Shown here piece after piece: positions 1 through 20,112 of a DNA stretch of 64,000 nt. Location of the stretch: contig CALFER010000090.1 of NCBI GenBank assembly GCA_937951895.1, positions 25,648 through 89,647 on the forward strand, written 5' to 3'. The translations under genes were made by a program, and so were the position numbers. Position 1 is the first letter of the stretch, and the number at the start of each line of letters is the position of its first letter. The notes under the pieces are model-generated. The model ran no database searches and had not been told where the DNA came from. It saw nothing but the letters and a program-made list of their open reading frames with translations. The stretch is from an uncultured bacterium (GTDB lineage: Bacteria; CSSED10-310; CALFER01).

Positions 1-1
1 C

Positions 2-304
2 CATACACTCAGACTCGATCAGGATCGCATGGCGTTCGATGTCGAGATCATTGTCAAGGCCGTCAGACACGGATACCGCATCCGGAATCTGGAGGTACCC
101 GTCCGCTATTTCAAGGGAAGCGAGCGTGTCACGCATTTTCGTCTGTTTCGGGACAACTGGGAGATGAGCAAGCTGCATTTCCTGTTTACCTGGGGATGCC
201 TCGTTCACTGGCCCGCCATGCTGATTCCGCGTTATGACGAGCAGTTCCGCCGACCGATGCACCGACAGCATTTCCCTATTGATTCCCGGTCGGCATCATC
301 ATAG
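2..304 (+). CDS. C-terminal fragment of a family-2 glycosyltransferase (DPM1-like); the gene starts upstream of the window
   Basis: Frame is open from the window edge. The translation ...GYRIRNLEVPVRYFKGSERVTHFRLFRDNWEMSKL resembles GT2 C-termini. The stop is at 304. Confidence 0.45.
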   Translation, partial: HTLRLDQDRMAFDVEIIVKAVRHGYRIRNLEVPVRYFKGSERVTHFRLFRDNWEMSKLHFLFTWGCLVHWPAMLIPRYDEQFRRPMHRQHFPIDSRSASS

Positions 305-357
305 CATGTTGTGCTGCTCCGGCGGCGAGACTCTCAACTACAGGAGGCACCATCCCA

Positions 358-1692
358 TTGTCCGCACTCAACCCACCCTATACCGATCGACGTGCTCTTC
401 CGATCTCGTTTTATCCGCTCCTGAGCGCTGAAGACGACGTCGATTCGGCCGCCATCGACCGCTTTACTGACTCACTCAAACAATCGGAGCCACCGGATCG
501 TTCGACGCTTTTGTACATCCACGTGCCCTTTTGCGAGTCCATATGCCGGTTCTGCGGATTCTATCGACGTCTGACGACCGATTTTGCGCCGCTCTCGCGC
601 GCCGAACTTCTCGATCGATTCACCTCGGCGCTGACCCGCGAGATCGCTTGCTGGCGCACCGTGATCGACCCGGGGGTGCATGCCATCGAGAGCATCTACA
701 TCGGAGGAGGCACCCCGAGTCTGCTCTCGTGTGCGAACATCGAAGCAATGATCGGAACCTTGCGCCGGCAGTTCGACCTGAGAGCGGATTGCGAGATCAC
801 TTTCGAAGGTGAGGTGCGCTCGATCGGCGATCCGGAGAAGCTATCCGTATTGAGGGATCTCGGTGTGACCCGTGTTTCGTTCGGTGTTCAGACTTTTCAC
901 GAATCCGTCCGGAAACTCAACGGCCTCCAACCGACTCTCGACCAGATCCGCCGCTGCGCGGACCGCGTGCGCAACGCCGGTTTCCAGGTCAACGTCGATC
1001 TGATGTACGGCCTCCCGTCACAGGATTTCGAGATCTTCATGAACGATCTGAGCATCGCCGTGCATGAACTCCGGGTATCACACATCGATCTGTACGACAC
1101 GATTCTCTACCCGAACATCGATCTCTTCACCCGGCGCGAAGTGTTTTCAGGAATGCTCCCCCCGGAGGAGGAAGGCGTTCGGATGCTGATGCGCGCAATC
1201 GAGTTCTTCCGTTCGGAGGGTTTCGTTCAACTCACGGCGGATGATTTCGTCCGGCCCGGAGCCGAGTATCGCATGAAGGATCTGATCTACGGGAGCCGCT
1301 CGGGGCATTCCCAGGTGCTCGCCATGGGACCCGCCGCCGTCGGATATCTCGGATACACGTCCTACCGGAACGAAGTTCTCGAACACTATCTGCCCTCTGA
1401 CTGGCAGCGTCCGACGATTCAGAGATTGCGCACGAGTGACGATCATGAGAAAGCCAACCGCGCGCTTATTTTTTATCCGAAGCGTCTGATGTTGAATGTG
1501 CCGGATCACTGCATCGAGCCATCACCTGAAGGCAAAGCGATTCTGGAACGTCAGATCGCCTGCGGGCTGGCGCAGCGACAGCCTGACGGGATTGTCCGGG
1601 CAACTGAACTGGGCAAACTCTGGGTCGACTCGATGTCCGCCGAATTTCTCAGCCCATCCGAAAAGCGCCGGATATTCAAACTGGTTCAGTAG
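358..1692 (+). CDS. Radical SAM enzyme of the HemN/HemW (class C) family. In this context it is more likely an acyl-chain modifying enzyme than a coproporphyrinogen oxidase.
   Basis: The CxxxCxxC motif sits in HVPFCESICRFCGFY. Length is 444 aa. TTG start with AGGAGG 9 nt upstream. It is the first gene of a translationally coupled operon. Confidence 0.8.
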   Translation: MSALNPPYTDRRALPISFYPLLSAEDDVDSAAIDRFTDSLKQSEPPDRSTLLYIHVPFCESICRFCGFYRRLTTDFAPLSRAELLDRFTSALTREIACWRTVIDPGVHAIESIYIGGGTPSLLSCANIEAMIGTLRRQFDLRADCEITFEGEVRSIGDPEKLSVLRDLGVTRVSFGVQTFHESVRKLNGLQPTLDQIRRCADRVRNAGFQVNVDLMYGLPSQDFEIFMNDLSIAVHELRVSHIDLYDTILYPNIDLFTRREVFSGMLPPEEEGVRMLMRAIEFFRSEGFVQLTADDFVRPGAEYRMKDLIYGSRSGHSQVLAMGPAAVGYLGYTSYRNEVLEHYLPSDWQRPTIQRLRTSDDHEKANRALIFYPKRLMLNVPDHCIEPSPEGKAILERQIACGLAQRQPDGIVRATELGKLWVDSMSAEFLSPSEKRRIFKLVQ

Positions 1693-1702
1693 CGGTTCCG
1701 TC

Positions 1703-3028
1703 ATGAAGATCCTTTTTGTCTATCCCCGATTCCGCAAGTTCCTCGATGACCTGTCCCCCGAGGATCGATCATTTTTCGAGCCGATCCTGGGCGGTTTCAA
1801 AACCCCGCCTTCCCTGGGCATCCCGATTCTGGCGGCGCTGACCCCCTCCCGCCACCACGTCGAACTGCTCGATGATAATCTCGGAGAATCCGTCCGATTC
1901 GATACCGACGCGGATCTGGTGGCCATCAACTGCTTTACCCCCCAGGCCACACGAGCCTTCGAGCTGGCGGATGGATTTCGCGCCGCGGGGAAACGGGTGA
2001 TCATGGGCGGCATTTTCCCTTCGGCCATGCCGGATGAGGTTCTGGAGCATGCGGACGCGGTGAATATCGGAGAGGGTGAGCCGACCTGGAGGGGGATTCT
2101 GGAGGATGCCGAACGGGGTGAACTCAAGCGACGATACCTGGGCGGGAAGGGATTCGATCTGGCGTCGATGCCGATTCCCGATCGATCTCTGTTTTATGCC
2201 AAAGCAGGTTATGATTGGCATTCCGCCCTGGTCCAGATCGCCAGGGGCTGTGGCTACAACTGCGCCATGTGCGTAATCCCCGAGCATTTCGGACACAGGA
2301 TTCGATTCCGGCCCATCGCAGACATCGTTGAGGAGATCAGGGCGCTGCCATATGACCAGATCTATCTCGCGGACGACACCCTGTTTCTGACCGACCGCCG
2401 GAGCGTGCAGTATGCGACGGATCTGTTCGCCGCGCTGGCCCCGCTGAAGAAGCGGCTGTTCCTTTCCTCGACGCTCGCGCTCAATACGGATCTCGAATTC
2501 CTCAAGCTCGCCCGGACAGCCGGTACGGAAACATTTTACTGTACCTTGAACGTCGATCCCGTTTCGATGCGGGCAATCTATCCGGAGACCCAGACGCATC
2601 GCAGGCGGCTCATCGATCTGGTACACGCCATCAAAGATCTCGGCATCCACTTCTACGCCTCGTTCGGGATCGGCCGGGACTGGGATGATGCGAGCATCAC
2701 GGAACGGATTCTGGAGTTGAGCGTGCAGGCGGGAATCGATATCGCGGAATTCTTTATTTTCTCGCCATTCCCGGGATCCGTGCAGTTCCAGCGGATGAAC
2801 TCGCAGAAACGATTGTTGCACCGCCGCTGGGAACTCTATAACGGAGCCAACGTCGTCTACCTGCCCCTGAAGATGGATCCGGATGTTCTCCAGGACGTTT
2901 TCATGCGGACCTGGCGTGAGTTTTATCGCATAAACCGCCGCGACTGGGTGCTCGAACGCATGGGAAAGCACACCTCGAAGAGTCCGCATCCCGATCATGA
3001 CGTTCCGGGCGGATTGACCCCGAGATGA
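1703..3028 (+). CDS. B12-binding domain radical SAM protein (class B radical SAM methyltransferase-like)
   Basis: The N-terminal MKILFVYPRF...GIPILAALT...VAINCFTPQ...VIMGGIFPS is a cobalamin-binding Rossmann-like domain. It is followed by the radical SAM motif ARGCGYNCAMCVIPEHFG. The track ORF 1496-3028 is an upstream extension overlapping gene 1. ATG at 1703 fits the family N-terminus. Confidence 0.8.
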   Translation: MKILFVYPRFRKFLDDLSPEDRSFFEPILGGFKTPPSLGIPILAALTPSRHHVELLDDNLGESVRFDTDADLVAINCFTPQATRAFELADGFRAAGKRVIMGGIFPSAMPDEVLEHADAVNIGEGEPTWRGILEDAERGELKRRYLGGKGFDLASMPIPDRSLFYAKAGYDWHSALVQIARGCGYNCAMCVIPEHFGHRIRFRPIADIVEEIRALPYDQIYLADDTLFLTDRRSVQYATDLFAALAPLKKRLFLSSTLALNTDLEFLKLARTAGTETFYCTLNVDPVSMRAIYPETQTHRRRLIDLVHAIKDLGIHFYASFGIGRDWDDASITERILELSVQAGIDIAEFFIFSPFPGSVQFQRMNSQKRLLHRRWELYNGANVVYLPLKMDPDVLQDVFMRTWREFYRINRRDWVLERMGKHTSKSPHPDHDVPGGLTPR

Positions 3029-5427
3029 CCGGGTACGCCCGCATCGCGATTACCGGGATCGGCGTCGTGAGCCCGATCGGATCGACAATCGACGCCTTTC
3101 TGGAATCCCTCAGCCAATCCCGCTGCGGCATTCGCCCGATGCAGGCATTCGACACCTCACCATTCCGGACAAATCTGGCCGGTGAGATTCCGGAGTTCGA
3201 TCCGCGGGATGAGTTGACGGACGACGAGATCGCCGAGTGGGGCGATCGGTATCTCTGGCTGGCGCTGTCCGCCGCACGGATGGCGATCCGGGATGCCGGT
3301 TACAGCGAGGGTTTCTCTGGAGCCCGCACGGTCGGAATCGCCGCGGGAACGTGCAACGGTGGATTACAGACCGCCGAACGGCTGTACCGGATGTTGCATG
3401 GAAACGAACCCGGGCATGTCGACGAACGGATGAACATCCTGTTCCGGTATTTTGCTCTGGGGCGCGCGCTTTCGAAGGTGTTCGCGATCGGAGGACCGGT
3501 GCATATCGTGACCACCGCGTGCGCCTCATCAACCGGCGCGCTGGGCCTGGGAGCCGACATGATCCGGTCCGGGCGCGCGGACTGCGTGCTTGCCGGAGGA
3601 GCCGATGCGTTGTGTCTGACGGCATATTCCGGTTTCAGCGGCATCAAGGCGATGGCAACCGGAATGACGACCCCATTCTCGGGCGCCGGAGAATACGGAT
3701 TGAATCTCGGCGAAGGAGCCGCCTTCTGGATTCTCGAGCACTTCGACGGGGCGATTGCGCGACAGGCGCGGATCTATGGTGAATTGCTGGATTACGGTCT
3801 TTCAGCGGATGCCTACCATGTCACGGCTCCTGATCCTCAGGGCGCAGGGACTCTGCGAGCCATGCGGTCCGCTCTGGAACGATCGGGAATCACCCCCGCG
3901 GAACTGGGATACATCAATCCGCATGGAACCGGAACCGAAGCCAACGATCGTTCGGAGTCTCGTGCAATCGAGAAACTGCTCGGTGACTCGAGTCTCACGG
4001 TACCGGTCAGTTCCTCCAAATCGTTTTTCGGACACTGTCTCGGAGCTGCGGGAATCCTGGAAGCTACGGCGTCTTTGCTCAGCATGCGAGCGGGTGTGAT
4101 CCCGCCGACGCTGAATTTTACCGACCCGAGACCAGGCTGCCGGTTGGATTATGTCCCGAATCAGGCAAGGCCGGCGCAATATCGTGCATTTCTGTCCAAC
4201 AGCATGGCATTCGGAGGCAACAATGCGGCGGTTTGCGTTAGTCTGGCCGGTGAATCTCCGCGTAACGGAACCGCGGCATCGGAGCGCAGGCGGGTCGTCA
4301 TAACGGGAACGGGAGCGGTGTCGCCGTTCGGACTGGATCCCGCCGCCCTGCTCACGGGACTCGCCACCGACCGATCAGCCATCCGCCCGATCGACCGTTT
4401 CAGCACTGACCATTGCGCATCACATCGAGCGGGTCTCGTTCCTCAGACCGATTGGAAACGTGCGGATCGCCGGATGAATCTCCAGGACCTGGAACCCCTC
4501 AGCCGCTATGCGACGTTGGCCGCCCGTCAGGCCCTCGATTCGGCGAATCTCAGGGTCACGCCCCGCAACTGTGATGCGGTCGGAATGATTCTCGGGGTCT
4601 GTGTCGGCCCGAACGAAGAAGTGCTGATGAACAGCGTCTGGGGTTCGCCCGACCACACACCGGACCTCGGGAAGTTTTCGGTCATCGTCGCCAATTCCGT
4701 CAGTGGGTGCGCATCCAAGGAACTCTTTTTGAAAGGCTATAACACCGTGCTTTCACCGGGGCATCACGCAGGCATGGCCGCGCTGATCCAGACCCAGGAC
4801 GCCATCGAACTCGGCCATTGCAACTCGATCGTCTGCGGGGCGAGTGATGAACTGTTTGCACGATACTTCTATAATTATGACACGGTGGGGTATCTGGCCC
4901 GTGCCTGCGATGAAATCCGATATGGCGAAGTGCTTCTTCCGGCCCGTCAGCGGGTTCTGGGAGAGGGGGCCGCTGCGCTGCTCGTGGAATCGCATGCGAC
5001 CGCCATCGAGAGCGGGCATGCGATTCTGGCCGAGATTCTCGGATCAGGCATGATCCACGACCCCGGACCGCTGCTCGAAGGCTGTCAATCCGAAGCCGGC
5101 CTTCTCGCCGCCATCGAAATCGCGTATGCACGCTCCGGTGTCGACCCGCGGCGCACGCAGTGCATCCTGCGCGCCCCTCAGGGGAATGCGGATGACCGAT
5201 TCGAACTCGGTGCAATCGAGCACTTTTTCGATCGATTTGGTGTTCATCCCTCCCGGCGCACGACTGTATTCCAAACCGGGTATGCCGAATCGGTTTCCGT
5301 ATTGTTCAACGTGGTGGCTATGTTGAACGGCTGGCGGGACGAGGCCATGCGCCTGCCGGGACACGTTCTGGTAACGGCATCGACGCTGATGGGGTACCAT
5401 TACGCGATGATCATGGAGGTTTTGTGA
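3025..5427 (+). CDS. Tandem ketosynthase didomain protein: N-terminal FabF-like KS with a full Cys-His-His triad, fused to a second KS-fold domain lacking the His motifs (CLF-like)
   Basis: Domain 1 has ITGIGVVSPIG, TACASS (active Cys), INPHGTGTEANDRSE and SSSKSFFGHCLGAAG. Domain 2 restarts with VVITGTGAVSPFG, has ANSVSGCASKELFLKG, but no HGTGT/GHxxGAAG motifs. The ATGA overlap with the upstream gene indicates translational coupling. Confidence 0.8.
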   Translation: MTGYARIAITGIGVVSPIGSTIDAFLESLSQSRCGIRPMQAFDTSPFRTNLAGEIPEFDPRDELTDDEIAEWGDRYLWLALSAARMAIRDAGYSEGFSGARTVGIAAGTCNGGLQTAERLYRMLHGNEPGHVDERMNILFRYFALGRALSKVFAIGGPVHIVTTACASSTGALGLGADMIRSGRADCVLAGGADALCLTAYSGFSGIKAMATGMTTPFSGAGEYGLNLGEGAAFWILEHFDGAIARQARIYGELLDYGLSADAYHVTAPDPQGAGTLRAMRSALERSGITPAELGYINPHGTGTEANDRSESRAIEKLLGDSSLTVPVSSSKSFFGHCLGAAGILEATASLLSMRAGVIPPTLNFTDPRPGCRLDYVPNQARPAQYRAFLSNSMAFGGNNAAVCVSLAGESPRNGTAASERRRVVITGTGAVSPFGLDPAALLTGLATDRSAIRPIDRFSTDHCASHRAGLVPQTDWKRADRRMNLQDLEPLSRYATLAARQALDSANLRVTPRNCDAVGMILGVCVGPNEEVLMNSVWGSPDHTPDLGKFSVIVANSVSGCASKELFLKGYNTVLSPGHHAGMAALIQTQDAIELGHCNSIVCGASDELFARYFYNYDTVGYLARACDEIRYGEVLLPARQRVLGEGAAALLVESHATAIESGHAILAEILGSGMIHDPGPLLEGCQSEAGLLAAIEIAYARSGVDPRRTQCILRAPQGNADDRFELGAIEHFFDRFGVHPSRRTTVFQTGYAESVSVLFNVVAMLNGWRDEAMRLPGHVLVTASTLMGYHYAMIMEVL

Positions 5428-7679
5428 AAGGGACGGCGGAGGTTCTGGTCACCGGGATCGGTATCGTATCCCCGATCGGAAATTCGGTTTCGGCCTTTCT
5501 GAACGCGTTGAAATCATCGAAATCCGGCATCCGTCCGATCGATCTCTTCGATGTAGCTCAGTTCAGGTCACATGTGTATGCACCGGCACATATCGAAACC
5601 TTGCCGGAACTCTCGGATCCCCCTGACACGGCGACCTGGGACCGGCATCTCCAGCTCGGCTATTTCGCTCTCAGGGATGCCCTGCGCGATGCCTCGATCG
5701 ACCGCGATCGCATTCCTGCACGAACCGGTCTGGTCTGTGCAACATGTTCCGGTCCGATGCTGACGATTGAAGCCGAGTATCTTCAGACGCCGATCGTACC
5801 GGGAGCGGGGGCGCGAACGGAATCCGTGTATCGGGATTACCGGCGGTATTACTCGATGGAGCGGACTCTCGTTCGCGTTTTCGGCATTCGTGGATTTTCG
5901 ACCACGGTTGTGACGGCGTGCGCCGCGAGCAGCAATGCGATCGGGCTGGGAGCCGATCTGATCGCCGAGGGCATTCTCGATCAAGTGTTCGTGGTCGGTT
6001 CGGATGCCTTTTCACCGTCGACGTTTGCCGGGTTCGATTTTCTGAAAGCCACCTGCATATCGGAATGTGCGCCGTTTTCGGACCCCGCCGGCATGAATCT
6101 GGGAGAAGGCGCCGGGGCCTGGGTGCTTGAAAACGGTGAGGTCGCCCGGCGACGGGGATCGAGGATCAGGGGACGGGTTCTGGGGTATGGCCTGAGCAAT
6201 GATGCCTACCATGCGACCGCGCCGGATCCGCAGGGCGAGGGGGCGATACTTGCGATGACCCGAGCCATGCATGATGCGGCGATCGACCCGGCATCCATCG
6301 GATACATCAACGCACACGGCACAGGAACGCTTCCGAATGACAGGACGGAATCGAGAGCGATCACGCGCGTGTTCTCCGATCGGACACCACCTCCGGTCAG
6401 TTCCTCAAAATCGTTCTTCGGTCATGCACTCGGTGCTGCAGGGATTCTTGAAGCATCCGCATCGCTGCTCATGATGAATGATGGCCTGCTGCCTCCGACA
6501 TTGCGATTCACGACCGCCCGGGAGGGTTGCGGACTGGATTACGTGCCGAATACGCCTCGCAAGACGGATGCCGGAGTGTTCTTGTCGAATAACTTCGCGT
6601 TTGCCGGCAATAACTCGGCGCTCTTGGTTGGAACAGTCGGGTGCGAAACCTCTTCCGCACGGGAATCGATGCCCAATGAAGTGGTGATCACGGGTTACAG
6701 CAGTCTGATGCCGGACGACACACGTGATCCGGCCGATCCGCGATCGTACACGTTCGACCTCGCGCGACTGGCACAGATGGATCGCCGTTTGCCCCTGAAG
6801 GAGATGGATGTGTCCAGTCAACTCGCGACACTGGCATCGAAGCGCGCGGTCCAGCATGCCGGATTATCGTTGAAGCCGCCGGATGCCAGGCAGATCGGCA
6901 TGATTCTTGGCCTCTGTGACGGTCCGAATCGCGGAGAAGCGGCGCATCTCAGGAGCATCGCGGTTTCCGGCCTGTCCGCTCCGAATCTCGTCATGTTTCC
7001 CTACATCGTCCTGAATTCGGTTGCCGGACAATGCTCGCGAGCATTGGGACTCAAAGGGTTTTCGTCGACTCTCTGCGGAGCCCCCGGTGCGGGGCTCCAT
7101 GCACTGATCTATGCCGCACTCGCAATCCGGCGCGGGCATGCGTCGATCTGTCTGGCATGCGGAGTCGATGAACGCCAGGAGTCGTATGTGTATGTGGATG
7201 AGAGTTCACATGCGGATGCCGGAATCGAGGATCGGCCTGTCAGTGACGGGGCGGCGTGCCTGGTTCTGGAGTCCGCCGGGTCCGCTCATGCGCGTCAGGC
7301 GAACGTCCTGGGCCGTTGGTTGAGCGGGTCGAGTTCCAATCTGGGGCCGGATCGATCCGAGGTGAACATCGGGCGTGAATGGGAGAGGTTCATTGAAGAA
7401 CTGGGCATCCCCCGCCGATCGATCGCAGGGATCGTGGTCGATGCCGATTATGGCATCGACGCGAAACGGATCGAGGAAGTGGCCCGGCGGTTTTCCTCCT
7501 CGACCGGAGCGAGGATTATCAGCGGAACGGAAGCCGGAAGCGCCCGTTCGTTGTCTTCCGGAGCACTCCGCAACATCTCGATCGCGCTGCAGATCCCGAA
7601 CTGTTCGGGGAAAACAGTCCTGACCGCCTACCTGTCGTCACTCGGACAACTCGGACTGATTGCGCTGCGGATCGAATAA
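5424..7679 (+). CDS. Second tandem KS/CLF-like didomain protein, paralogous to 3025-5427
   Basis: Domain 1 has VTGIGIVSPIG, TACAASSNAIGLGAD, INAHGTGTLPNDRTE and SSSKSFFGHALGAAG. Domain 2 has VVITGYSS...LNSVAGQCSRALGLKG without the His motifs. GTG start in a GTGA overlap, GGAGG 4 nt upstream. Confidence 0.8.
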   Translation: MKGTAEVLVTGIGIVSPIGNSVSAFLNALKSSKSGIRPIDLFDVAQFRSHVYAPAHIETLPELSDPPDTATWDRHLQLGYFALRDALRDASIDRDRIPARTGLVCATCSGPMLTIEAEYLQTPIVPGAGARTESVYRDYRRYYSMERTLVRVFGIRGFSTTVVTACAASSNAIGLGADLIAEGILDQVFVVGSDAFSPSTFAGFDFLKATCISECAPFSDPAGMNLGEGAGAWVLENGEVARRRGSRIRGRVLGYGLSNDAYHATAPDPQGEGAILAMTRAMHDAAIDPASIGYINAHGTGTLPNDRTESRAITRVFSDRTPPPVSSSKSFFGHALGAAGILEASASLLMMNDGLLPPTLRFTTAREGCGLDYVPNTPRKTDAGVFLSNNFAFAGNNSALLVGTVGCETSSARESMPNEVVITGYSSLMPDDTRDPADPRSYTFDLARLAQMDRRLPLKEMDVSSQLATLASKRAVQHAGLSLKPPDARQIGMILGLCDGPNRGEAAHLRSIAVSGLSAPNLVMFPYIVLNSVAGQCSRALGLKGFSSTLCGAPGAGLHALIYAALAIRRGHASICLACGVDERQESYVYVDESSHADAGIEDRPVSDGAACLVLESAGSAHARQANVLGRWLSGSSSNLGPDRSEVNIGREWERFIEELGIPRRSIAGIVVDADYGIDAKRIEEVARRFSSSTGARIISGTEAGSARSLSSGALRNISIALQIPNCSGKTVLTAYLSSLGQLGLIALRIE

Positions 7680-7798
7680 CCCGTAACGATCTCGATTCCA
7701 TAACCCGAAAAACGTTCTTGGAAATTGTGTCTCTATTTGCTAAACATATCTCTTCTATCGACCATCCAATCCAGTCAGGAAGGAAGAATCGCAATAGA

Positions 7799-8119
7799 AT
7801 GAATGCGTCAATCGAAAACAGAATAGCGACCCGGTCGGCAGTGATTTCCCGTGTCAAACGCGATCTGATCCAGAGGCTGTCACTTTCTTATACCGAAGAG
7901 GATCTGCATGAAGATGCATCGCTCATCGGCTCCGGTCTCGGACTCGATTCACTCGATGCGCTCGAAATCATTCTCGGGATCGAACAGGAATTCAGGGTCA
8001 AGATCGAGGAAGGCAACATTTCCGTGTTGCGCTCCATCAATACGATCGTCGACTATATTCTCGAAAATCAAACACACCCGGCCGCGTCGGCGCAGGTCAC
8101 GGAAGGAGGCACACGATGA
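7799..8119 (+). CDS. Acyl carrier protein
   Basis: The phosphopantetheine-site motif LGLDSLDALEI is present. About 106 aa if started at ATG 7799, which has AGGAAGGA upstream. The track ORF starts earlier at 7718. Confidence 0.75.
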   Translation: MNASIENRIATRSAVISRVKRDLIQRLSLSYTEEDLHEDASLIGSGLGLDSLDALEIILGIEQEFRVKIEEGNISVLRSINTIVDYILENQTHPAASAQVTEGGTR

Positions 8120-9231
8120 CGTACAGGTCTCCCCTGCATGACCTCTCAGTATCACGAAATGCCGTGCTGACGTCGCGGGACGGATTCACCGCGGTCTCGC
8201 GTTATCGCCCGCTGGAAGACGAGTATCGCACCATACGAGAAGCCGTCGGAATGACCGATTTTTCGCATTTCCAGAAGTTCTGTTTCCGGGGTGAGGAGGC
8301 GCTGTATTTTCTGGACGAGATTCTGCCTGCGAACATCGCCAACATCCGCTACGGCCGCGTCATCCACACGTTTCTCGCAGATGACGATGGGAACCTGTTG
8401 AGCGATGTGTATGTGGCGAATCAGGACGATACGATCTGGATGATCTGCGAGAGTTGCGTTGAAACCGCCGTCATCGAACAGCGGCTGGCTGCTGCGAATA
8501 GCCACCGAATTCCTTACGACCACCTGACCGACTCGTTTGCGGCATTCTCGATCGACGGACCGCAGGCCTGGGCGGTGGCGCGTGAGATGTTCGGCCCGGA
8601 TGTGCTGGGGATGCCCTACCTGTCCGTCGAACTGCACGATGAAAGCGGCGATGGCATCGTGCTGCTGCGCACAGGCAAAACCAGTGAGTTCGGATACCTG
8701 ATGCTGGTGCCGGTCGCGCGTTGCAGGGATGTCTACGAGCGTCTGCTGGCTCTGACAGAGACCCGGAGCGGGGCGGCATGCGGGATCGATGTGTTCGACA
8801 TCCTCAAGCTCGATGGTCGTTTCTTCAACATCAACCAGGAAGGGCGGATCGTCCGCGATCCTCTCACGCTGGGACTGCAATGGATGATCGACTTTCAGAA
8901 GGATACGTATCACGGCAAGTCAGCGATCGACAGGCGGCGTGAATCCGGATTGACTCGGAAGATCATCGGTTTGAAAGCACTCGCAGCGGGAACGCCGATG
9001 AATCGTGATACACGGATCGTTTCAGGTGAAGAAACAGTGGCTGAGGTCGTCACCGTGGGCTACTCGCAGGCACTGGACACCCAGATGGCGCTGGCATTGT
9101 TCGACATCCGTTATGCCTATTCCGGACTGGAGTTCATCGCGCAGACCGAGACTGGAAACGTGCCGGTGCAGACGGTATCGCTTCCTCCGTTCATCCCCCG
9201 GAGCCTCACGATCAAACTCGATGAGATGTAG
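8116..9231 (+). CDS. GcvT-fold (aminomethyltransferase / YgfZ-like) folate-binding family protein
   Basis: 371 aa. Overall resemblance to glycine-cleavage T-protein family proteins, for example the N-terminal ...IREAVGMTDFSHFQKFCFRGEEALYFLDEIL. ATGA overlap with the ACP stop. Confidence 0.55.
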   Translation: MTYRSPLHDLSVSRNAVLTSRDGFTAVSRYRPLEDEYRTIREAVGMTDFSHFQKFCFRGEEALYFLDEILPANIANIRYGRVIHTFLADDDGNLLSDVYVANQDDTIWMICESCVETAVIEQRLAAANSHRIPYDHLTDSFAAFSIDGPQAWAVAREMFGPDVLGMPYLSVELHDESGDGIVLLRTGKTSEFGYLMLVPVARCRDVYERLLALTETRSGAACGIDVFDILKLDGRFFNINQEGRIVRDPLTLGLQWMIDFQKDTYHGKSAIDRRRESGLTRKIIGLKALAAGTPMNRDTRIVSGEETVAEVVTVGYSQALDTQMALALFDIRYAYSGLEFIAQTETGNVPVQTVSLPPFIPRSLTIKLDEM

Positions 9232-9237
9232 TCGGGC

Positions 9238-9675
9238 ATGAAACGGGAGATCCGCGGATCGATCGATATCCGGGTCGAGTTTCGTGATGTGGATATGCTC
9301 GGAGTCGCGCACAACTCGGTTTATTTTCTTTGGTTCGAGCGCGGGAGACTTGCTCTGCTCGAATCGATCATTCCCTTTCAAACCGCATTGGATCAGCAGA
9401 TCGCTCTGATCGTCGTGCGGCAAACCTGTGAGTACCATGCTCCGGCGCTCCTCGGAGATGATCTGATCCTGACGACACGTACCGATCTGTCTGATGCCTA
9501 TGGCGGCCGCATTCGATGCGCGCATACGCTTTCCAATCGTCGAACCCTGATCGAGATTGCCTCGGGGGAAACGGATCTGACCATGTGGAACATCGAATCA
9601 CGCAAGCTGATACGCGAGATACCCGATTTCATCCGGACTCGGATCCGGGATCTCCTGCATGGAGTGACGTCATGA
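9238..9675 (+). CDS. Hotdog-fold acyl-CoA/acyl-ACP thioesterase (4HBT/YbgC-like)
   Basis: 145 aa. [30 protein letters not shown] is typical of 4HBT thioesterases. Its stop overlaps the fabG-like start (ATGA). Confidence 0.6.
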
Positions 9676-10418
9676 GCACGTTGCTGGAAGGCAAAACCGT
9701 CATTGTGACGGGAGGAACGCGAGGAATCGGACGGGCGATTGTCGAATGCCTGCATCGTGAAGGGGCCCGGGTCTGGTTCACGTACATCCGGAGCGATGCC
9801 ATCGCCGCCGAGATGCAGCAGTCGCTTGACGGTGTCCGCTCGTTCCGGATCGACGGAACCGATCGATCCGCGATCGCGGCGTGTCTGGACGAATGCCAGT
9901 CGACGTGCGGCGCCCCCGACGTCCTCGTCAACAATGCGGGCGTGACCAGCAACATGTTCTTCCCGATGATGAATTCCGAAGAGTGGAACAGGGTCATCGC
10001 AGCGAATCTCACCACCGTGTTCAACTGGACGAGGGAAACGATCCGGCCGATGTTGATCGCGCGGAAAGGATCGATCATCAACATTGCCTCCGTGTCGGGC
10101 GTCTTCGGAGTCTCGGGTCAGTCGGCCTACAGTGCCTCCAAAGGAGCGATGCTGGCGTTTACCCGGACCATCGCCGCTGAAACGGCATCGAAAGGCATCC
10201 GAGTCAATGGAATCGTGCCTGGATTCATCGACACGGAGATGACGGCGAAGATACCGAAACCGCTTCGGATGAAATACCTCGAACGCATCAGCATGCAACG
10301 GTTCGGGACACCGGATGAAGTCGCATCGGTCGTTCTGTTTCTGGCCTCGGATCTCTCATCGTATATCACCGGTCAGACCATCATCGTCGATGGCGGTTTG
10401 ACGGCGACCTTCAACTGA
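9672..10418 (+). CDS. fabG: 3-oxoacyl-ACP reductase (SDR, FabG-like)
   Basis: [23 protein letters not shown] contains the NAD(P)-binding motif. The catalytic-region motifs ...SVSG...YSASKGA are present. The track ORF 9516 is an upstream extension. Confidence 0.8.
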
Positions 10419-10419
10419 G

Positions 10420-11352
10420 ATGAAAACGGCGTTTCTGTTTCCCGGACAGGGTTCGCAGTTTGTCGGCATGGGTCGCGATCTCGTCCGATCATCCCCCTCC
10501 GCACTTGCGCTTTTCGAACGCGCGTCCGAGATTTCCGGAATCGATATCGCCGCTGCGTGTGTTCGCGGCCCCCTGTCGCGATTGTCCCGGACCGATGTGC
10601 TTCAGCCGTGCATCACAACCGTCAACCTCGCGGTACTCGAAGAACTCACCGCAAGGGGCGTCCGAGCGGAAGCGGCGGCCGGCCATTCGCTGGGTGAGTT
10701 TTCCGCATGTGTGGCCTCGGGTGTATTCCCGGCGGACACCGCCATCGAATTGACAACCCGCCGCGGACATCTGATGCACGAAGCGTCCATATCGACGCCG
10801 GGAACCATGGCTGCCGTCATCGGTTTACCGGCCGATCGGATCGAGTCCCTGATCAGCGTTCGCTGCGATCCGTTGCTGGTGGCCGCGAATTTCAATGCAC
10901 CGGATCAGACGGTCGTATCGGGACCGCGCGCGGCCATTGACTCACTTTCCGCTTCGATACGTGACGAAGGCGGTCGAATCGTCTTTCTTCAGGTTTCAGG
11001 TGCCTGGCACTCTCCGGCTATGAATTCCGCCGCAGATCTCTGGAAAGATGCGGTCGATCGAGTTCCGATCCGTCCTCCGGCGATCGATCTTTACATGAAT
11101 GTATCGGGTTGCGCCGAGTCCGACCCGTCCGCGATACGCCGATGCATGGAATCCCAGTTGGTCCGTCCTGTTCGCTGGACGACGATCCTGACGCACATGT
11201 ATCGATCCGGTGTTCGCCGGTTCCTGGAAATCGGCCCCGGAACGGTTCTCAGGCAACTGCTCCGCGCCAATCCTTTCCCGCCCGAAAGTTACACCGTGCA
11301 CTCCGTCGCTGATATCAGAAGCATCGATAATCTCCTTGCCCACTCCCCCTGA
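10420..11352 (+). CDS. fabD: Malonyl-CoA:ACP transacylase (FabD-like)
   Basis: MKTAFLFPGQGSQFVGMG and GHSLGEFSA (active-site Ser) are present. 310 aa. Confidence 0.85.
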   Translation: MKTAFLFPGQGSQFVGMGRDLVRSSPSALALFERASEISGIDIAAACVRGPLSRLSRTDVLQPCITTVNLAVLEELTARGVRAEAAAGHSLGEFSACVASGVFPADTAIELTTRRGHLMHEASISTPGTMAAVIGLPADRIESLISVRCDPLLVAANFNAPDQTVVSGPRAAIDSLSASIRDEGGRIVFLQVSGAWHSPAMNSAADLWKDAVDRVPIRPPAIDLYMNVSGCAESDPSAIRRCMESQLVRPVRWTTILTHMYRSGVRRFLEIGPGTVLRQLLRANPFPPESYTVHSVADIRSIDNLLAHSP

Positions 11353-11384
11353 ACATTCTATTCTCATAAGGAATTGCCGAGGAG

Positions 11385-12860
11385 GTGACGATGACGCTCC
11401 GACTTGCCGTTCCCTGTATTGTTGTGCTCTTGTTTGCGATTCCGTCGAGTCTGTCGACCCCGCCGCAACCGTATGAATTCGATTACGGCCAGAGTCGCCC
11501 GGGGGGACTCGATCGGACTTTTGATCATAACAGGACTCCGACGATCGATCATGTGAGGGAATGGGAGCAGATCTGCCTTTTCCTGGATCGATGGCAGGTC
11601 AGCGATCCGACCGACCCCGAATTCGGAGGCATGATCGAAGATGAGTATCGAACGGGTGCGGATCGGATCGTCGAATCCGACAACACGCAGGAGGCGATTT
11701 TCGCCTGGTGCCGGTACATGGAACTGACGGGATCGACGCAATTCGATCAGAATGTCACCGACGCCTGGACCTACCTCACGGTATTCCCGGCCTGGCTGGA
11801 AGAACCCGTTCACTATGCTCTCTGGAATTGCGCGTGGGGCATTCAGGCTCACAGACAGTATCAAAAAACCTACGCATCGGATGCGCACCGCGCTTACGCA
11901 GACCAGTGCGCCGAATTCATTCTCACGCATGATCTTTCTTTCCAGGGCACTCCGCCGCAGGTGGGCTACCGGAACGTGTTCATCACAGCCTGGGCTGCCT
12001 ATCATCTCCATCTGTTTGCCTCGGAAGCACCGGATCCGGATCTGATTATCCGCGCGGAAAACATGGCAACCCGCGTCAGGGATTGGCTGGCCGAGGATCC
12101 GGCGAACATTCTGAAAACCGGATGGGCGCTGTCGGGGGGTGCGGCTGCGGCCGCGGTGATCCATGTGCTGTATCATGACGATCCCGAAGGAGCGTTGGCG
12201 TACTATGAAGCGAATCTGCTGGACATGCCTCTGTACTTCGATCCGGCCGATTTCAATCCCTCCTCGTGGATCCACGCCTGGGACAGTTTTCTTGCACTCG
12301 CCCAGAACACCCTCTGGCGCGTCACACAGCGGTTTGAATTCCGCTTGAATGCGCTCGAACAATCCGAATTCATGCGATCGCACGATGGGGACGGCGACGG
12401 AGGGATTCCTCCGAATCCTTCGATGTCGGACACCGAGGATCACACCTGGGTATCGACCTACATCACGGTGATGGGATTCGATATGCTGGATGAACCGTCT
12501 CGGGTCAGTCTTTCGATGCCGGACTCATCGCTTGCAGCCGGTGATCGCATGGAGGCGGGAATCCAGGTTGTCGCTCCGGGATTGGATCGAACTGCCGACC
12601 TGTATCTCGTTCTCGAAATCGCCAACCAGTTTCTGTTCTTCCCGCAGTTCACGGACCAACCCGAAGCCATACGGCTTGTTTGCCCGATCGGGTACGATCT
12701 CGCGGCAGCTCTCGGTTTCCAGGACACCATCCCCTTCCTGACAATTGATCCGTGGCCGTCAGCCGGCTCATTTTCGGCCACCTGGTGGGCCGCATTGATC
12801 GACCCGGCCACATCTGAATTGATCGGTGATCTCATTACCCTGCCGTGGGCCTCGGAATGA
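11385..12860 (+). CDS. Secreted hypothetical protein (signal peptide), function unknown
   Basis: Hydrophobic N-terminus MTMTLRLAVPCIVVLLFAIPSS. GGAGG RBS. No recognisable catalytic motif. Confidence 0.5.
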   Translation: MTMTLRLAVPCIVVLLFAIPSSLSTPPQPYEFDYGQSRPGGLDRTFDHNRTPTIDHVREWEQICLFLDRWQVSDPTDPEFGGMIEDEYRTGADRIVESDNTQEAIFAWCRYMELTGSTQFDQNVTDAWTYLTVFPAWLEEPVHYALWNCAWGIQAHRQYQKTYASDAHRAYADQCAEFILTHDLSFQGTPPQVGYRNVFITAWAAYHLHLFASEAPDPDLIIRAENMATRVRDWLAEDPANILKTGWALSGGAAAAAVIHVLYHDDPEGALAYYEANLLDMPLYFDPADFNPSSWIHAWDSFLALAQNTLWRVTQRFEFRLNALEQSEFMRSHDGDGDGGIPPNPSMSDTEDHTWVSTYITVMGFDMLDEPSRVSLSMPDSSLAAGDRMEAGIQVVAPGLDRTADLYLVLEIANQFLFFPQFTDQPEAIRLVCPIGYDLAAALGFQDTIPFLTIDPWPSAGSFSATWWAALIDPATSELIGDLITLPWASE

Positions 12861-12895
12861 GCCCGGCTCACCTGACGAACAGGAGCGGCGCTGCG

Positions 12896-14242
12896 ATGAA
12901 CGAATCCAGACGGACACTGATAGAAAACGCACGGATCTGGGCGGGACCCGGATCGGAAATAGAACACGGTGCGATTGCTTTCGAGGGGAACCGATTCATC
13001 GATCCGGCAACAGCCAGGGACGATCCGGGCAGCATTCGGAGAGACGGGAGCAATCTCCTCCACATGCCGGGCTTCGTGAACGCGCACGGCCATCTTTACA
13101 GTGCGCTCGCCCGAGGCATGCCGGCACCTCCCCGGCAAGCCGGAAACTTCGCGCAGATTCTGGAATACATCTGGTGGAGGCTGGACAAGGCACTGGACCC
13201 GGAATCCCTATTGATGAGTGCATACACCGGGATTATGGACAGCATCCGCTCCGGGGTGACCACGATCTTCGATCATCATGCGAGCCCTCGTGCCATCGAC
13301 GGCAGTCTTTCCGTAATTGCGTCGGCACTCAAGGATATCGGGATGCGGGGAGATCTCTGTTACGAAGTTTCGGATCGCGACGGAACAGCCGCGGCCCGGG
13401 CTGGAATCCGGGAGAACGAACGGCACCTCGAGTCGCTCAGACAACATCCCGATCCGCTTCTGGCCGGCCATTTCGGCCTGCACGCTCTGTTCACGCTTTC
13501 AGACGAGACACTGAAGGAATCGGTTCAGGCGGCGGAGAAACTCGGAACGGGGTTTCATGTTCATGTGGCGGAGGGTCCGGAGGATGTGGAACTCTCTCAG
13601 ACCCGTCACGGCATGGGGCTAATCCCGAGAATGCTGAAACACGACATGCTCAGACCCGATACATTGCTGATCCATGGCGTGCATCTGACTTCGGATGATC
13701 TGGCGACGCTTGCCCGCCACCCGGTCACGCTCGTGCACAATCCCCAGTCCAATCAGAACAATGCGGTCGGATTCTGCGATATCACAGCCGTTCATGATGC
13801 CGGAGTCAATCTGGCACTCGGGAACGATGGAATCGGAGGAGCGATCCTCCCCGAGCTTCGTGCGGCGGTGTTTGCAGGACACCATGCCGCCCGGTCACCG
13901 GGCAGGCCTTCCTGGGCGCTCCCGTTCTCGATGCTCATGCACGCCAACACTACCCTTGCAACAAAGGCGTTCGGCATCCCGATCGGAAGAATTGAGCCGG
14001 GATATGCCGCGGATTTCATCACGGTCGACTACATCCCTCCGACACCCTGGACCATAGACAACACCATCGGTCATTTCCTGTTCGGATTGTGTGAACGGCT
14101 TCGGGTGCATGACGTCTGGGTGAACGGCACTCAGGTTTTAGGCGGCGGACGGTTCATCCGGATCGACGAGGATCAGATCGCGGAGCGAAGCCGGGCGGCC
14201 GCGACAGCAGTATGGGAAAAACTCTCCGCCGATCGATTGTAA
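12896..14242 (+). CDS. ssnA: SsnA-family aminohydrolase (amidohydrolase superfamily)
   Basis: HMPGFVNAHGHLYSALARGM...ILEYIWWRLDKALDPESL...IFDHHASP closely parallels E. coli SsnA (PGIVCSHNHFYSGLSRG...WWRLDRALDEESL...IDHHASP). ATG 12896 has an AGGAG RBS. The track ORF starts at GTG 12845. Confidence 0.75.
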   Translation: MNESRRTLIENARIWAGPGSEIEHGAIAFEGNRFIDPATARDDPGSIRRDGSNLLHMPGFVNAHGHLYSALARGMPAPPRQAGNFAQILEYIWWRLDKALDPESLLMSAYTGIMDSIRSGVTTIFDHHASPRAIDGSLSVIASALKDIGMRGDLCYEVSDRDGTAAARAGIRENERHLESLRQHPDPLLAGHFGLHALFTLSDETLKESVQAAEKLGTGFHVHVAEGPEDVELSQTRHGMGLIPRMLKHDMLRPDTLLIHGVHLTSDDLATLARHPVTLVHNPQSNQNNAVGFCDITAVHDAGVNLALGNDGIGGAILPELRAAVFAGHHAARSPGRPSWALPFSMLMHANTTLATKAFGIPIGRIEPGYAADFITVDYIPPTPWTIDNTIGHFLFGLCERLRVHDVWVNGTQVLGGGRFIRIDEDQIAERSRAAATAVWEKLSADRL

Positions 14243-14280
14243 GCGGTCGCGTCACCCGGCGAGATCGGTAGATTCTGGCC

Positions 14281-15174
14281 ATGTTTCACGAGCACATCGG
14301 AGAGGTCGCCGCCCTTCTGACCGCCGCATTCTGGACAACCACCGCCATGTCCTTCGAAATTGCGGGAAAACGCGTCGGATCGCTCCCCGTGAATCTCATT
14401 CGCCTGTTTTTCGGTTTCGGATTCCTCTCGACTTACTCGATCCTGTCCCGGGGCATGTTTCTCCCGATCGATGCCTCGATGCATGCCTGGTTCTGGCTGT
14501 CGCTGTCCGGATTCGTCGGCTTTGTGATCGGCGATCTTCTTCTGTTCCGGGCATTTGTTCTCATAGGTTCCAGGACATCCATGCTGATCATGTCCGCGGT
14601 GCCACCCATGACAGCACTTATCGGTTGGGTATTTCTGGGAGAGACGCTGTCGGCGAGGCATCTGGTGGGCATGAGTGTGACGGTGGCGGGGATTGCCATG
14701 GTCGTGCTGAAAAAAAACCATGCCACCTCCCCCGCTCTTTCCGCGAACATCCCGGGGTATCTGTGTGCAACCGGAGGTGCGCTGGGGCAGGCGGTCGGCC
14801 TCGTGCTCAGCAAATTCGGAATGGAATCCTACAATGCCTTTGCCGCCACTCAGATTCGGATCATCGCAGGACTGATCGGTTTCGCAGCAGTATTCGCTTT
14901 TAGAAAAGAGTGGCACAGAGTGTTTCGTGCGTTTCGGGATGGACGGGCGATGCTGTTCCTGACGATCGGCTCCTTTTTCGGTCCTTTTCTGGGGGTTTCG
15001 TTTTCGCTTCTGGCGGTTCAGCATACTGCCACCGGCATCGCATCGACGATCATGTCGATCGTTCCGATCCTGATCATTCCTCCCGCAGTCATCTTCCTGA
15101 AAGAAAGCGTCAGTCTCCGGGAGGTGGTCGGCGCAGCGATCGCCGTGATCGGAATCGCGATGATGTTCGTGTGA
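14281..15174 (+). CDS. EamA/DMT-superfamily transporter
   Basis: About 10 predicted TM helices. The two-repeat EamA architecture is present. Confidence 0.7.
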   Translation: MFHEHIGEVAALLTAAFWTTTAMSFEIAGKRVGSLPVNLIRLFFGFGFLSTYSILSRGMFLPIDASMHAWFWLSLSGFVGFVIGDLLLFRAFVLIGSRTSMLIMSAVPPMTALIGWVFLGETLSARHLVGMSVTVAGIAMVVLKKNHATSPALSANIPGYLCATGGALGQAVGLVLSKFGMESYNAFAATQIRIIAGLIGFAAVFAFRKEWHRVFRAFRDGRAMLFLTIGSFFGPFLGVSFSLLAVQHTATGIASTIMSIVPILIIPPAVIFLKESVSLREVVGAAIAVIGIAMMFV

Positions 15175-15186
15175 TACGGAAGCCGT

Positions 15187-19548: not shown

Positions 19549-20112
19549 TTACTGAAGGGAACCGATCGCATGCAGGGGCCAGAATCGGAATGTGATGCGG
19601 CCCTCGATGCAGCGTTCCGGAACAAACGGATAGACTTCATGGGCAAGCGCCCATACTCGGCTGTCGTTGCTGTTGGTTCGATGATCGCCGGCCACGAAGT
19701 AGAATCCGCGAGGCACTCGTGTCGGGCGGATCGATTCAGCCGACCGGAATTCCGGGATGACGTAGGATTCGGCCTGGCGGGTGCCGTTGATGAAAACATC
19801 TCCCGATCGGATTTCGACCAGATCCCCGGGTTCAGCCAGAATCCGCTTGATGAGCTGCATTCCGGGGTCAGCCGGACTCTGGAACACGACGATGTCCTGC
19901 CGATGATATCCGTTCCAGCGTGCCGAGATTTTATCCGCGAACACGAAGTCGCCGTGGTGAAGGAGAGGATTCATCGATCCGCCTTCGATCTTGAAGCCCT
20001 TACAGATGTAACCGGTGAGGAAGAACACGAACAGCCCACTCCAGAAAACCGCCCGAAGCCAGTCGCGAATGACGATGTAGTTGATCCCGGTGACAGTTCG
20101 CGCCATGATCAT
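19549..20112 (-). CDS. lepB: Signal peptidase I
   Basis: Has GGSMNP (catalytic Ser) and GDHRTNSNDSR boxes. Confidence 0.85.
   Translation of the reverse strand: MIMARTVTGINYIVIRDWLRAVFWSGLFVFFLTGYICKGFKIEGGSMNPLLHHGDFVFADKISARWNGYHRQDIVVFQSPADPGMQLIKRILAEPGDLVEIRSGDVFINGTRQAESYVIPEFRSAESIRPTRVPRGFYFVAGDHRTNSNDSRVWALAHEVYPFVPERCIEGRITFRFWPLHAIGSLQ

Follow-up and report, generated by a model that had tools for sequence, protein, structure and literature searches.

We describe here two adjacent genes in a 64,000-nt stretch of DNA from an uncultured bacterium (GTDB lineage Bacteria; CSSED10-310; CALFER01), comprising positions 25,648 to 89,647 of contig CALFER010000090.1 (assembly GCA_937951895.1). 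This whole stretch is called the window in the following, and all positions refer to it. Open reading frames (ORFs) were located with a six-frame ORF list. The two genes, ORF A and ORF B, belong to a cluster in which all genes are encoded in the same direction, with stop and start codons overlapping at several junctions. Each encodes a FabF-type ketosynthase (KS), followed in the same chain by a second KS fold that lacks the catalytic triad and resembles a chain-length factor (CLF):

3025-5427, + strand: ORF A, 800 aa, ATG start; single-chain KS and CLF-like didomain protein, A type
3025-4245, + strand: ORF A, N-terminal domain; FabF-type ketosynthase, predicted from its sequence to be active
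4246-4290, + strand: ORF A, linker of about 15 residues between the two KS folds
4291-5424, + strand: ORF A, C-terminal domain; KS fold without catalytic triad, CLF-like partner
5424-7679, + strand: ORF B, 751 aa, GTG start; single-chain KS and CLF-like didomain protein, B type
5424-6638, + strand: ORF B, N-terminal domain; FabF-type ketosynthase, likewise predicted to be active
6678-7676, + strand: ORF B, C-terminal domain; shorter and more degenerate KS fold without triad

The start codon of ORF A overlaps the stop codon of the upstream gene (ATGA), and that of ORF B the stop codon of ORF A (GTGA), with a GAGG located 4 bases 5' of the GTG. The N-terminal half of ORF A carries the motifs TGIGVVSPIG, TTACASS (Cys166), HGTGT (His300) and KSFFGHCLGAAG (Lys332 and His337); the respective catalytic codons are 3520-3522 (Cys166), 3922-3924 (His300), 4018-4020 (Lys332) and 4033-4035 (His337). 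At about residue 423 a second KS fold restarts with RRVVITGTG and continues with NSVSGCASKELFLKG. ORF B follows the same plan, with TGIGIVSPIG, VTACAASS (Cys166, codon 5919-5921), HGTGT (His298, 6315-6317) and KSFFGHALGAAG (His334, 6423-6425; the lysine is K329) in its first half, a restart with EVVITGYS at about residue 419 and, thereafter, NSVAGQCSRALGLKG. Every motif quoted for the two ORFs in the original prediction, which had been made from the letters of the window alone, is present in the translations.

The Pfam models PF00109 and PF02801 match the N-terminal halves with 171 and 128 bits (A) and 131 and 119 bits (B), at a Pfam cut-off of 20.8. With the fabF model TIGR03150, E-values of 6e-140 and 4e-106 were obtained for the N-terminal halves of A and B, respectively. 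Both proteins nevertheless miss the equivalog cut-off of this model (493.75 bits) with scores of 466.5 (A) and 355.1 (B); the looser subfamily model NF005589 (cut-off 387) is passed by A at 434.8 and failed by B at 328.1.

In the second halves, a four-domain alignment places His580/Arg716/Glu755 of A and Pro/Ala/Arg of B at the positions of the Cys/His/His triad; both C-terminal halves are also about 20 residues short near their C-termini. Compared alone with PDB sequences (phmmer), the C-terminal half of A retrieves FabF structures at E = 3e-20, versus 7e-9 for AntE and 1e-8 for the actinorhodin CLF. For the C-terminal half of B, the best match is the chain-length factor AntE (6smo_C, E = 8e-9), FabF following at 6e-7. 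A and B are 41% identical to each other and colinear through both halves over 691 residues. The architecture put forward in the original prediction, a complete FabF-type KS plus a second KS fold without the His motifs, is thus borne out by the four-domain alignment and by the homologues described below, as is its tandem duplication, with ORF A and ORF B lying back to back.

Word-indexed searches gave hundreds of homologues. The family alignment comprises 241 full-length didomain homologues of about 750-830 aa, which cluster into two clean clades, A (n = 128) and B (n = 113). The Cys, His, His and Lys residues of the N-terminal domain are invariant (241/241). Cys never occurs at the equivalent position of the C-terminal domain, where we found Pro (141 homologues), His (39), Ala (28), Gln (10) and others, including Arg and Trp. 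The column of the first His holds Trp in most members of the A clade and varied non-His residues in the B clade, and that of the second His is occupied by Glu in 201 of the 241 homologues. A HMMER search with the C-terminal domain of A in 1.84 billion cluster representatives resulted in 512 matches at E <= 1e-10 and 34 at E <= 1e-30. The fusion is the normal state of this C-domain family, since the top 150 representatives are mostly proteins of 750-850 aa in which the match covers approximately residues 415-770. The family is patchily distributed across the searched genomes, and its members bear generic names at NCBI. In a contig scan with the family profile, the matches listed were mostly ordinary FabF genes, and about 20 of 80 loci were useful for the comparisons made here.

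AlphaFold2 models were built with the family alignments and compared with the PDB by Foldseek. The model of ORF A reached a predicted local distance difference test (pLDDT) value of 95.7 and a predicted template modelling score (pTM) of 0.96, the only weak stretch being the linker (residues 411-420); for ORF B, the values were 92.3 and 0.95. As the structure-prediction check suggested along with the original prediction was meant to reveal, the two halves of both models pack as an intramolecular KS-CLF-like dimer, superposing on 6RIW, the KS-CLF didomain of PfaC. This entry is the sole full-length Foldseek match of either model (TMq 0.81 for A and 0.78 for B, about 900 columns; 18% identity to both), and all other matches (FabF, Iga11, actinorhodin KS, AntD) cover one half each, with TMq values of about 0.5. 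Judging from the models, the most likely reading is that each protein forms a KS/CLF-like pseudo-heterodimer, joined covalently and provided with a single active site. Together with the loss of the triad and its conservation in the family, we consider it probable that ORF A and ORF B each form such a self-contained pair within one polypeptide.

Domain-by-domain BLAST comparisons gave 47% identity between the N-terminal domains of A and B and 35% between their C-terminal domains, versus 26-28% between N- and C-terminal domains; the fusion is therefore older than the A/B duplication. Identity is about 50% within the clades versus 36% between them. In all six loci with readable context (L001, L003, L005, L006, L085 and L086), A is directly followed by B, and many further A/B pairs were found in the search tables on contigs of equal size. 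The A/B pair is an old, conserved duplication. An expanded arrangement is seen in a Pirellulaceae metagenome-assembled genome (MAG; L010, 5379-12336), where three fused KS-CLF-type genes stand in a row; a GcvT-like gene lies ahead of them, and two malonyl-CoA:ACP transacylase (MAT) genes and a ketoreductase (KR) gene come after.

ORF A and ORF B are embedded in the following genes (ACP, acyl carrier protein; SAM, S-adenosylmethionine):

29-304, + strand: glycosyltransferase-family-2-like (GT2) gene, 3' end, cut by the window start (tblastn, 63% identity to the GT2 tail preceding the L001 cluster; fragment without Pfam match)
358-1692, + strand: HemN/ChuW-HutW-like (class C) radical SAM enzyme (PF04055, 9e-19; TIGR04107, 6.7e-59, below cut-off; CxxxCxxC at Cys59)
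1703-3028, + strand: B12-binding radical SAM enzyme (PF02310 and PF04055; CxxxCxxC at Cys183); its stop codon overlaps the start of ORF A
7799-8119, + strand: ACP, 106 aa (DSL motif, Ser51; PF00550; NCBIfam ACP models all below cut-off)
8116-9231, + strand: GcvT-like protein with the folate-binding aminomethyltransferase fold (PF01571, 3e-36; far below the GcvT equivalog cut-offs)
9238-9675, + strand: hot-dog thioesterase of the 4HBT/YbgC type (PF13279 and PF03061; TIGR00051 below cut-off)
9672-10418, + strand: FabG-like 3-ketoacyl-ACP reductase, 248 aa (PF13561, PF00106, PF08659; NF009466, 240.6 bits, cut-off 222)
10420-11352, + strand: FabD-like MAT (PF00698; TIGR00128, 251 bits, cut-off 261)
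11385-12860, + strand: secreted protein of 491 aa (no Pfam or NCBIfam match; N-terminal hydrophobic, signal-like segment)
12845-14242, + strand, start probably at about 12896: SsnA-like amidohydrolase (PF01979; NF005540, 434.5 bits, cut-off 444)

Some of the starts given here differ from those of the mechanical ORF list. For the B12-binding radical SAM enzyme we prefer the ATG at 1703 (441 aa) over the ORF 1496-3028, in line with the gene calls in L001 and L003 and with fused homologues, whose N-termini align from residue 70 of this ORF. The ACP most likely starts at 7799 rather than 7718 (a 106-aa gene call is common to L001-L004), and the reductase at the ATG at 9672 rather than with the ORF 9516-10418 (248-aa gene calls in L001-L003). 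No rRNA, tRNA or other Rfam family was found in the window.

A block consisting of the B12-binding radical SAM enzyme, A, B, ACP, GcvT-like protein, thioesterase, KR and MAT recurs in L001, in L085 (GCA_003165595.1) and, rearranged, in a Verrucomicrobiia MAG (L006); the five genes from ACP to MAT lie downstream of A/B in L001, L003, L006 and L085. The homologues in L001 are 73% (A) and 61% (B) identical to the window proteins. One Myxococcota locus has kept only radical SAM enzyme, A and B, beside sugar-modifying genes. Start/stop codon overlaps, as expected for translational coupling, join radical SAM enzyme and A, A and B, and ACP and GcvT-like gene, where the stop codon of the former overlaps the start of the latter. 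The HemN-like gene at 358-1692 was found only in the closest relatives of the cluster (L001 and L003) and is not part of the conserved core. Whether the secreted protein and the SsnA-like amidohydrolase belong to the pathway is uncertain: the former is 71% identical in L001, the latter is present in L001 and L002, and both are absent from L085.

The most distinctive feature of the system is the physical coupling of the A type to the B12-binding radical SAM enzyme. The A type always has the gene for this enzyme as its neighbour or as an N-terminal fusion, the latter in 73 of 128 A-clade members; none of the 113 members of the B clade is fused to it. Neither this coupling nor the conserved ACP/GcvT-like pair had been noted in the original prediction. 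Fused radical SAM-KS-CLF proteins of about 1,250 aa account for 58 of 120 A-type homologues from the first search (P0014-P0120; for example, L085 10001-13750). The fused form comes from sources named Fibrobacter, Chitinivibrionales and Chitinispirillaceae, the unfused one from Deltaproteobacteria, Myxococcota and Polyangia. P0059, a B-type protein of 1,257 aa, has a different N-terminal extension without a radical SAM match in Pfam. As "Rosetta-stone" evidence, the fusion argues for radical chemistry that is coupled directly to chain elongation. Among the matches listed, there are also distant single KS-CLF fusions beside ACP, GcvT-like, KR and FabA-type dehydratase genes and without a radical SAM gene, carried by Serratia silvae, Paraburkholderia, Streptomyces, Isoptericola, Acrocarpospora and a Bacillota MAG.

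ACP and GcvT-like genes were observed beside fused KS-CLF genes in distant phyla (Serratia, Paraburkholderia, Streptomyces, Verrucomicrobiota and others), with or without a radical SAM gene; the scores of these GcvT-like proteins are far lower than the cut-offs for true GcvT. The loci are window 7799-9231, L009 8364-9934, L085 16098-17488, L015 7858-9907, and L013, L014, L021, L083, L012, L010 and L007; in the window, L009 and L085, the stop codon of one gene and the start codon of the other overlap by 4 nt. GcvT itself naturally acts on a substrate carried by a lipoyl swinging arm, so a one-carbon (C1) or aminomethyl reaction on a group tethered to the ACP might be imagined for the GcvT-like protein, which is pure speculation. 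We found no literature link between GcvT or other aminomethyltransferases and KS/CLF pairs; the swf cluster from a sponge (PMC3908369) was checked as such a link and turned out to be unrelated. Published descriptions of the fused didomain pair, of the radical SAM-KS-CLF fusion or of the association with a GcvT-like gene were not found in our literature searches either.

Further downstream in the window, two genes run convergent to the KS cluster (16229-19548, - strand): one for an AMP-binding (acyl/aryl-CoA-ligase-like) protein and, behind it, one for a 553-aa polytopic membrane protein with at least eight predicted transmembrane segments and no family match. A "phenylacetyl-CoA ligase" and a "new membrane protein" have been described as syntenic with radical SAM/FabF clusters (Rattray et al. 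2009; PMC2649909). The gene at 25213-27030 (- strand) encodes a protein of 605 aa whose N-terminal part is an acyltransferase domain (PF01553/PF19576) and whose C-terminal part is GNAT-like (PF13444). Its layout recalls that of OlsF-type bifunctional ornithine/amino-acid lipid synthases. Unrelated to the KS genes are two large, adjoining membrane proteins with tetratricopeptide repeats at 56930-62418 (- strand); that of 803 aa also has a TMEM260-like O-mannosyltransferase domain, and that of 1,028 aa a Wzy_C O-antigen-ligase-like domain.

Ketosynthases are obligate dimers. According to our proposal, the dead C-terminal half of A and B would replace the second subunit of this dimer and would complete and shape the acyl tunnel of the single active site, by analogy with the CLF in type II polyketide synthases (PKSs) and with the PfaC didomain. 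The N-terminal half would catalyse a decarboxylative Claisen condensation, with the acyl chain bound to Cys166 and extended with malonyl-ACP in a ping-pong fashion. Extender units would be supplied by the cluster's own ACP and the FabD-like transacylase, reduction would be carried out by the FabG-like reductase, and the product would be released by the thioesterase. The fusion itself would have arisen from a FabF-like gene ahead of the A/B duplication.

Most likely, A and B would each serve their own stage of elongation, or their own chain length, on one ACP-bound product. Two distinct chain-length regimes, an idea already raised in the original prediction, fit the data because A and B represent two old, conserved clades, of which only A fuses to the radical SAM enzyme. 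The B12-binding radical SAM enzyme might alkylate or rearrange the growing chain, bound to A or to the ACP, between or during elongations. This chain would probably be partly unsaturated, since the operon encodes a KR and no enoyl reductase, with an ApeI/FabA-type dehydratase supplied from outside it. As to the product, a radical-SAM-modified, partly unsaturated lipid or polyketide is the most likely candidate, a suggestion that we make with much lower confidence than that of the fused KS/CLF-like pair.

The original prediction had treated the covalent KS-CLF fusion as unusual, implying novelty, but single-chain KS-CLF proteins are already present in polyunsaturated fatty acid (PUFA) synthases. 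The KS-CLF didomain of Moritella marina PfaC has been crystallised (6RIW; Santin et al. 2020, as cited in PMC12895367) and performs the last elongations in PUFA synthesis (PMC12895367). As in PfaC, one chain of A or B carries an active KS and then a triad-less CLF-like domain, which are predicted to form a pseudo-heterodimer; the elongation of ACP-bound chains with malonyl units, a feature of PfaC, would apply to A and B as well. Unlike A and B, PfaC is part of a megasynthase (KS-CLF-DH-DH, DH standing for dehydratase) together with PfaA, PfaB, PfaD and tandem ACPs, whereas the proteins described here end after the CLF-like domain and are free-standing members of a dissociated, type-II-like operon with discrete ACP, KR, MAT and thioesterase. 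The PfaA model TIGR02813 gives 74 bits for A and 72 for B at a cut-off of 1010. Because the N-terminal domains are FabF-like and the C-terminal domains are nearer to FabF than to solved CLFs, the sequences suggest that the fusion in A and B is independent of that in PfaC. Moreover, PUFA synthases are not known to have an associated radical SAM enzyme.

Another free-standing protein with two KS-type domains, only one of which is active, is PigJ/RedX of prodigiosin biosynthesis (about 760 aa). The PigJ model NF053555 (759 positions) aligns to the N-terminal domains of A and B via its positions 496-721 only, with 77.3 and 61 bits, respectively, at a cut-off of 900. Since the model matches the N-terminal domain of A only via its C-terminal part, and in view of what is known about PigJ, this protein seems to carry a fused KS pair in reverse order, with the active KS as the C-terminal half. 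Its context, pyrrole chemistry, is different as well.

With the KS-alpha/CLF pairs of type II PKSs and related systems (actinorhodin, 1TQY; AntDE, 6SMO; ishigamide Iga11/Iga12, 6KXD; aryl-polyene ApeO/ApeC), A and B share the combination of an active KS and an inactive KS-fold partner, along with discrete ACP, KR and malonyl transferase. The N-terminal domains match Iga11 (4.8e-76) as well as they match FabF. Those pairs, however, consist of two separate polypeptides, and the Gln that is typical of CLFs is absent from A, where His is found, and from B, where Pro is found. Of the features of a CLF, the C-terminal halves thus show a KS fold without triad, throughout the 241 homologues, and, in the predicted structures, packing on an active KS; the typical Gln occurs in only 10 of the 241, and the sequence affinity of the C-terminal half of A is to FabF rather than to any solved CLF. 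On these two grounds we rejected the C-terminal domains as true type II PKS CLFs; they are not members of the actinorhodin-type CLF family. Because of the closer affinity to FabF and the near absence of the Gln, the C-terminal domains are rather CLF-like by analogy and are most simply explained, as far as their sequences go, as an independent invention derived from FabF.

A similar logic is encountered in anammox bacteria. Here, amxFabF2 and amxFabFmut, encoded beside an ACP and a B12-binding radical SAM gene, were shown biochemically and crystallographically to form a KS/CLF-like heterodimer, the triad of amxFabFmut being changed from Cys to Val or Thr and from His to Asn, Glu or Cys (bioRxiv 10.64898/2026.05.19.726425). 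In this heterodimer, the mutated paralogue acts like a CLF in a pathway of the fatty-acid type. Atypical, triad-less FabF paralogues encoded by separate genes next to those of radical SAM enzymes had been noted by Rattray et al. (2009; PMC2649909) for anammox bacteria, Rhodopirellula and several deltaproteobacteria. Like the putative ladderane Cluster I of anammox bacteria, the cluster in the window unites an active and a triad-less FabF paralogue, an ACP and a B12-binding radical SAM enzyme, a likeness in logic. In anammox bacteria, KS and partner are separate polypeptides, the mutant one coming first; in the window the two are fused, the active KS precedes the inactive fold, and the fusion is duplicated. 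The radical SAM enzyme of the window scores 51.5 bits with the ladderane model TIGR04072 (rSAM_ladder_B12), far from the cut-off of 360. A phytoene-desaturase-like gene and amxFabZ were looked for in window positions 1-20,000 and not found, and the cluster in turn has a GcvT-like gene and a HemN-like radical SAM gene that set it apart from the anammox one. The best PDB sequence match of the N-terminal domain of A is 9s5h_B (1.3e-85, about 22 bits above the best FabF), from a heteromeric entry with two different KS-like chains (B and C). This entry may be the amxFabF2/FabFmut complex, although the preprint gives no PDB codes; the spacing between Cys and the first His fits, and the numbering of the second His is off by 2.

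In jawsamycin biosynthesis, the HemN-like radical SAM cyclopropanase Jaw5 modifies the growing ketoacyl chain together with the iterative PKS Jaw4, which is a type I PKS. Class C radical SAM enzymes include methylene-transferring cyclopropanases such as Jaw5. The HemN/ChuW-like gene at 358-1692, directly upstream of the B12-binding radical SAM and KS genes, resembles this system by enzyme class. Jaw5/Jaw4 are also mentioned in PMC13459092. Of the features that define housekeeping FabF, type II PKS CLFs, the PfaC megasynthase, PigJ and the ladderane-type B12-binding radical SAM family, at least one is absent here in each case.

Several observations weigh against our reading of A and B as self-contained KS/CLF-like pairs that elongate a radical-SAM-modified chain. 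The pseudo-dimer is a prediction and not a solved structure, and with 18% identity to PfaC the full-length root-mean-square deviation amounts to 5.6-6.8 Å. Within that part of the cluster which the window covers, neither a dehydratase nor an enoyl reductase was found; the only ApeI-like dehydratases lie upstream of the cluster in L001 and in its vicinity in L085. Our reading also leaves the conserved GcvT-like protein without an assigned role. Finally, strongly conserved motifs (G-x-[H/D/Q]-A-G, W-A-P-Q-G and T-G-Y-x-E) persist in the C-terminal domain of the A clade where the active site used to be, which could point to a function beyond scaffolding.

This last point leads to an alternative that we regard as unlikely: the C-terminal domains may have acquired a new activity or docking role, such as decarboxylative priming, binding of the ACP-tethered intermediate on which the radical SAM enzyme would act, or recruitment of this B12-binding enzyme. 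The A-clade residues in question are G579, [H/D/Q]581, A582, G583, W716-A-P-Q-G and T751-G-Y-x-E755, to which the Glu at the position of the second His (201/241) and the restriction of radical SAM fusions to the A type may be added. On the other hand, no nucleophile or known catalytic constellation is kept across both clades, the positions being variable in the B clade, and characterised triad-less partners (CLFs, amxFabFmut) also keep conserved non-catalytic residues (bioRxiv 10.64898/2026.05.19.726425). Such a role would overlap with that of a tunnel-shaping partner and does not exclude it.

That the genes encode a housekeeping fatty-acid synthase with FabF isozymes instead of a specialised pathway is very improbable. 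The FabF, FabG, FabD and ACP models are indeed the best NCBIfam matches, but the two KS proteins stay under the fabF equivalog cut-off (466 and 355 versus 493.75), as do the ACP, FabD-like and thioesterase genes with respect to theirs. FabZ, FabI and FabH are all missing from the operon, which does encode two radical SAM enzymes, a GcvT-like protein and a thioesterase; the patchy distribution of the family is a further argument. Hardly any weight is left for a tandem duplication of two active ketosynthases with two active sites per chain: both halves have the KS fold, but neither the window proteins nor any of the 241 homologues retain the Cys, the two His or the Lys-containing motif in their second halves, so a full Cys-His-His triad, named in the original prediction as the finding that would speak for this, is not what the alignment shows. 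A frameshift or assembly artefact joining separate KS and CLF genes, the other objection named there, is practically negligible because the same didomain layout recurs in all 241 full-length homologues, within hundreds of proteins of 750-830 aa from many phyla; the ORFs run without interruption in four or more independent assemblies from one and the same organism (L002, L003, L004 and a 793-kb NCBI contig), exact matches to the window exist in the 793,476-bp NCBI contig and the ENA assemblies ERZ724082 and ERZ724083, public assemblies hold an identical 751-aa gene call for ORF B (P0121), and the domains are in frame across a short linker in chains that AlphaFold2 models as a whole with confidence, whereas the few C-domain matches of about 400 aa in the representative library could be split genes or fragments.

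While KS-CLF fusion as such is known from PfaC, the pair described here is new in that its didomains are free-standing, derived from FabF and arranged in tandem, within a radical-SAM-linked cluster that has so far gone uncharacterised. One of the central questions in the engineering of polyketides and fatty acids is how chain length is programmed by a dead partner subunit, and in this family the stoichiometry of KS and partner is fixed by fusion in a small, FabF-derived protein of about 800 aa, which was then duplicated; about half of the sampled A-type homologues add a B12-binding radical SAM domain to the same chain. We tentatively propose, with rather more reservation than for the fused pair itself, that the core of B12-binding radical SAM enzyme, KS-CLF A, KS-CLF B, ACP and GcvT-like protein might constitute an unrecognised dissociated fatty-acid/polyketide synthase, in which C-C or C-H chemistry would be carried out by the cobalamin-dependent radical SAM enzyme while the chain, bound to ACP or KS, passes from one elongation regime to another, the two regimes being set by the two KS-CLF units. 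If so, its product would represent a lipid class of a new kind, alkylated or cyclised, from anaerobic bacteria of the Desulfobacterota, Myxococcota, Fibrobacterota and Verrucomicrobiota type, and the third radical-SAM-modified ketoacyl lipid after ladderanes and jawsamycin. The ACP/GcvT-like pair with fused KS-CLF genes, which extends from Serratia to Streptomyces, is a second lead. With hundreds of sequences from several phyla, the family could be a tractable analogue of the anammox system of KS/CLF and B12-binding radical SAM enzyme and would, if our proposal is true, make the unsolved ladderane problem easier to approach by genetic means.

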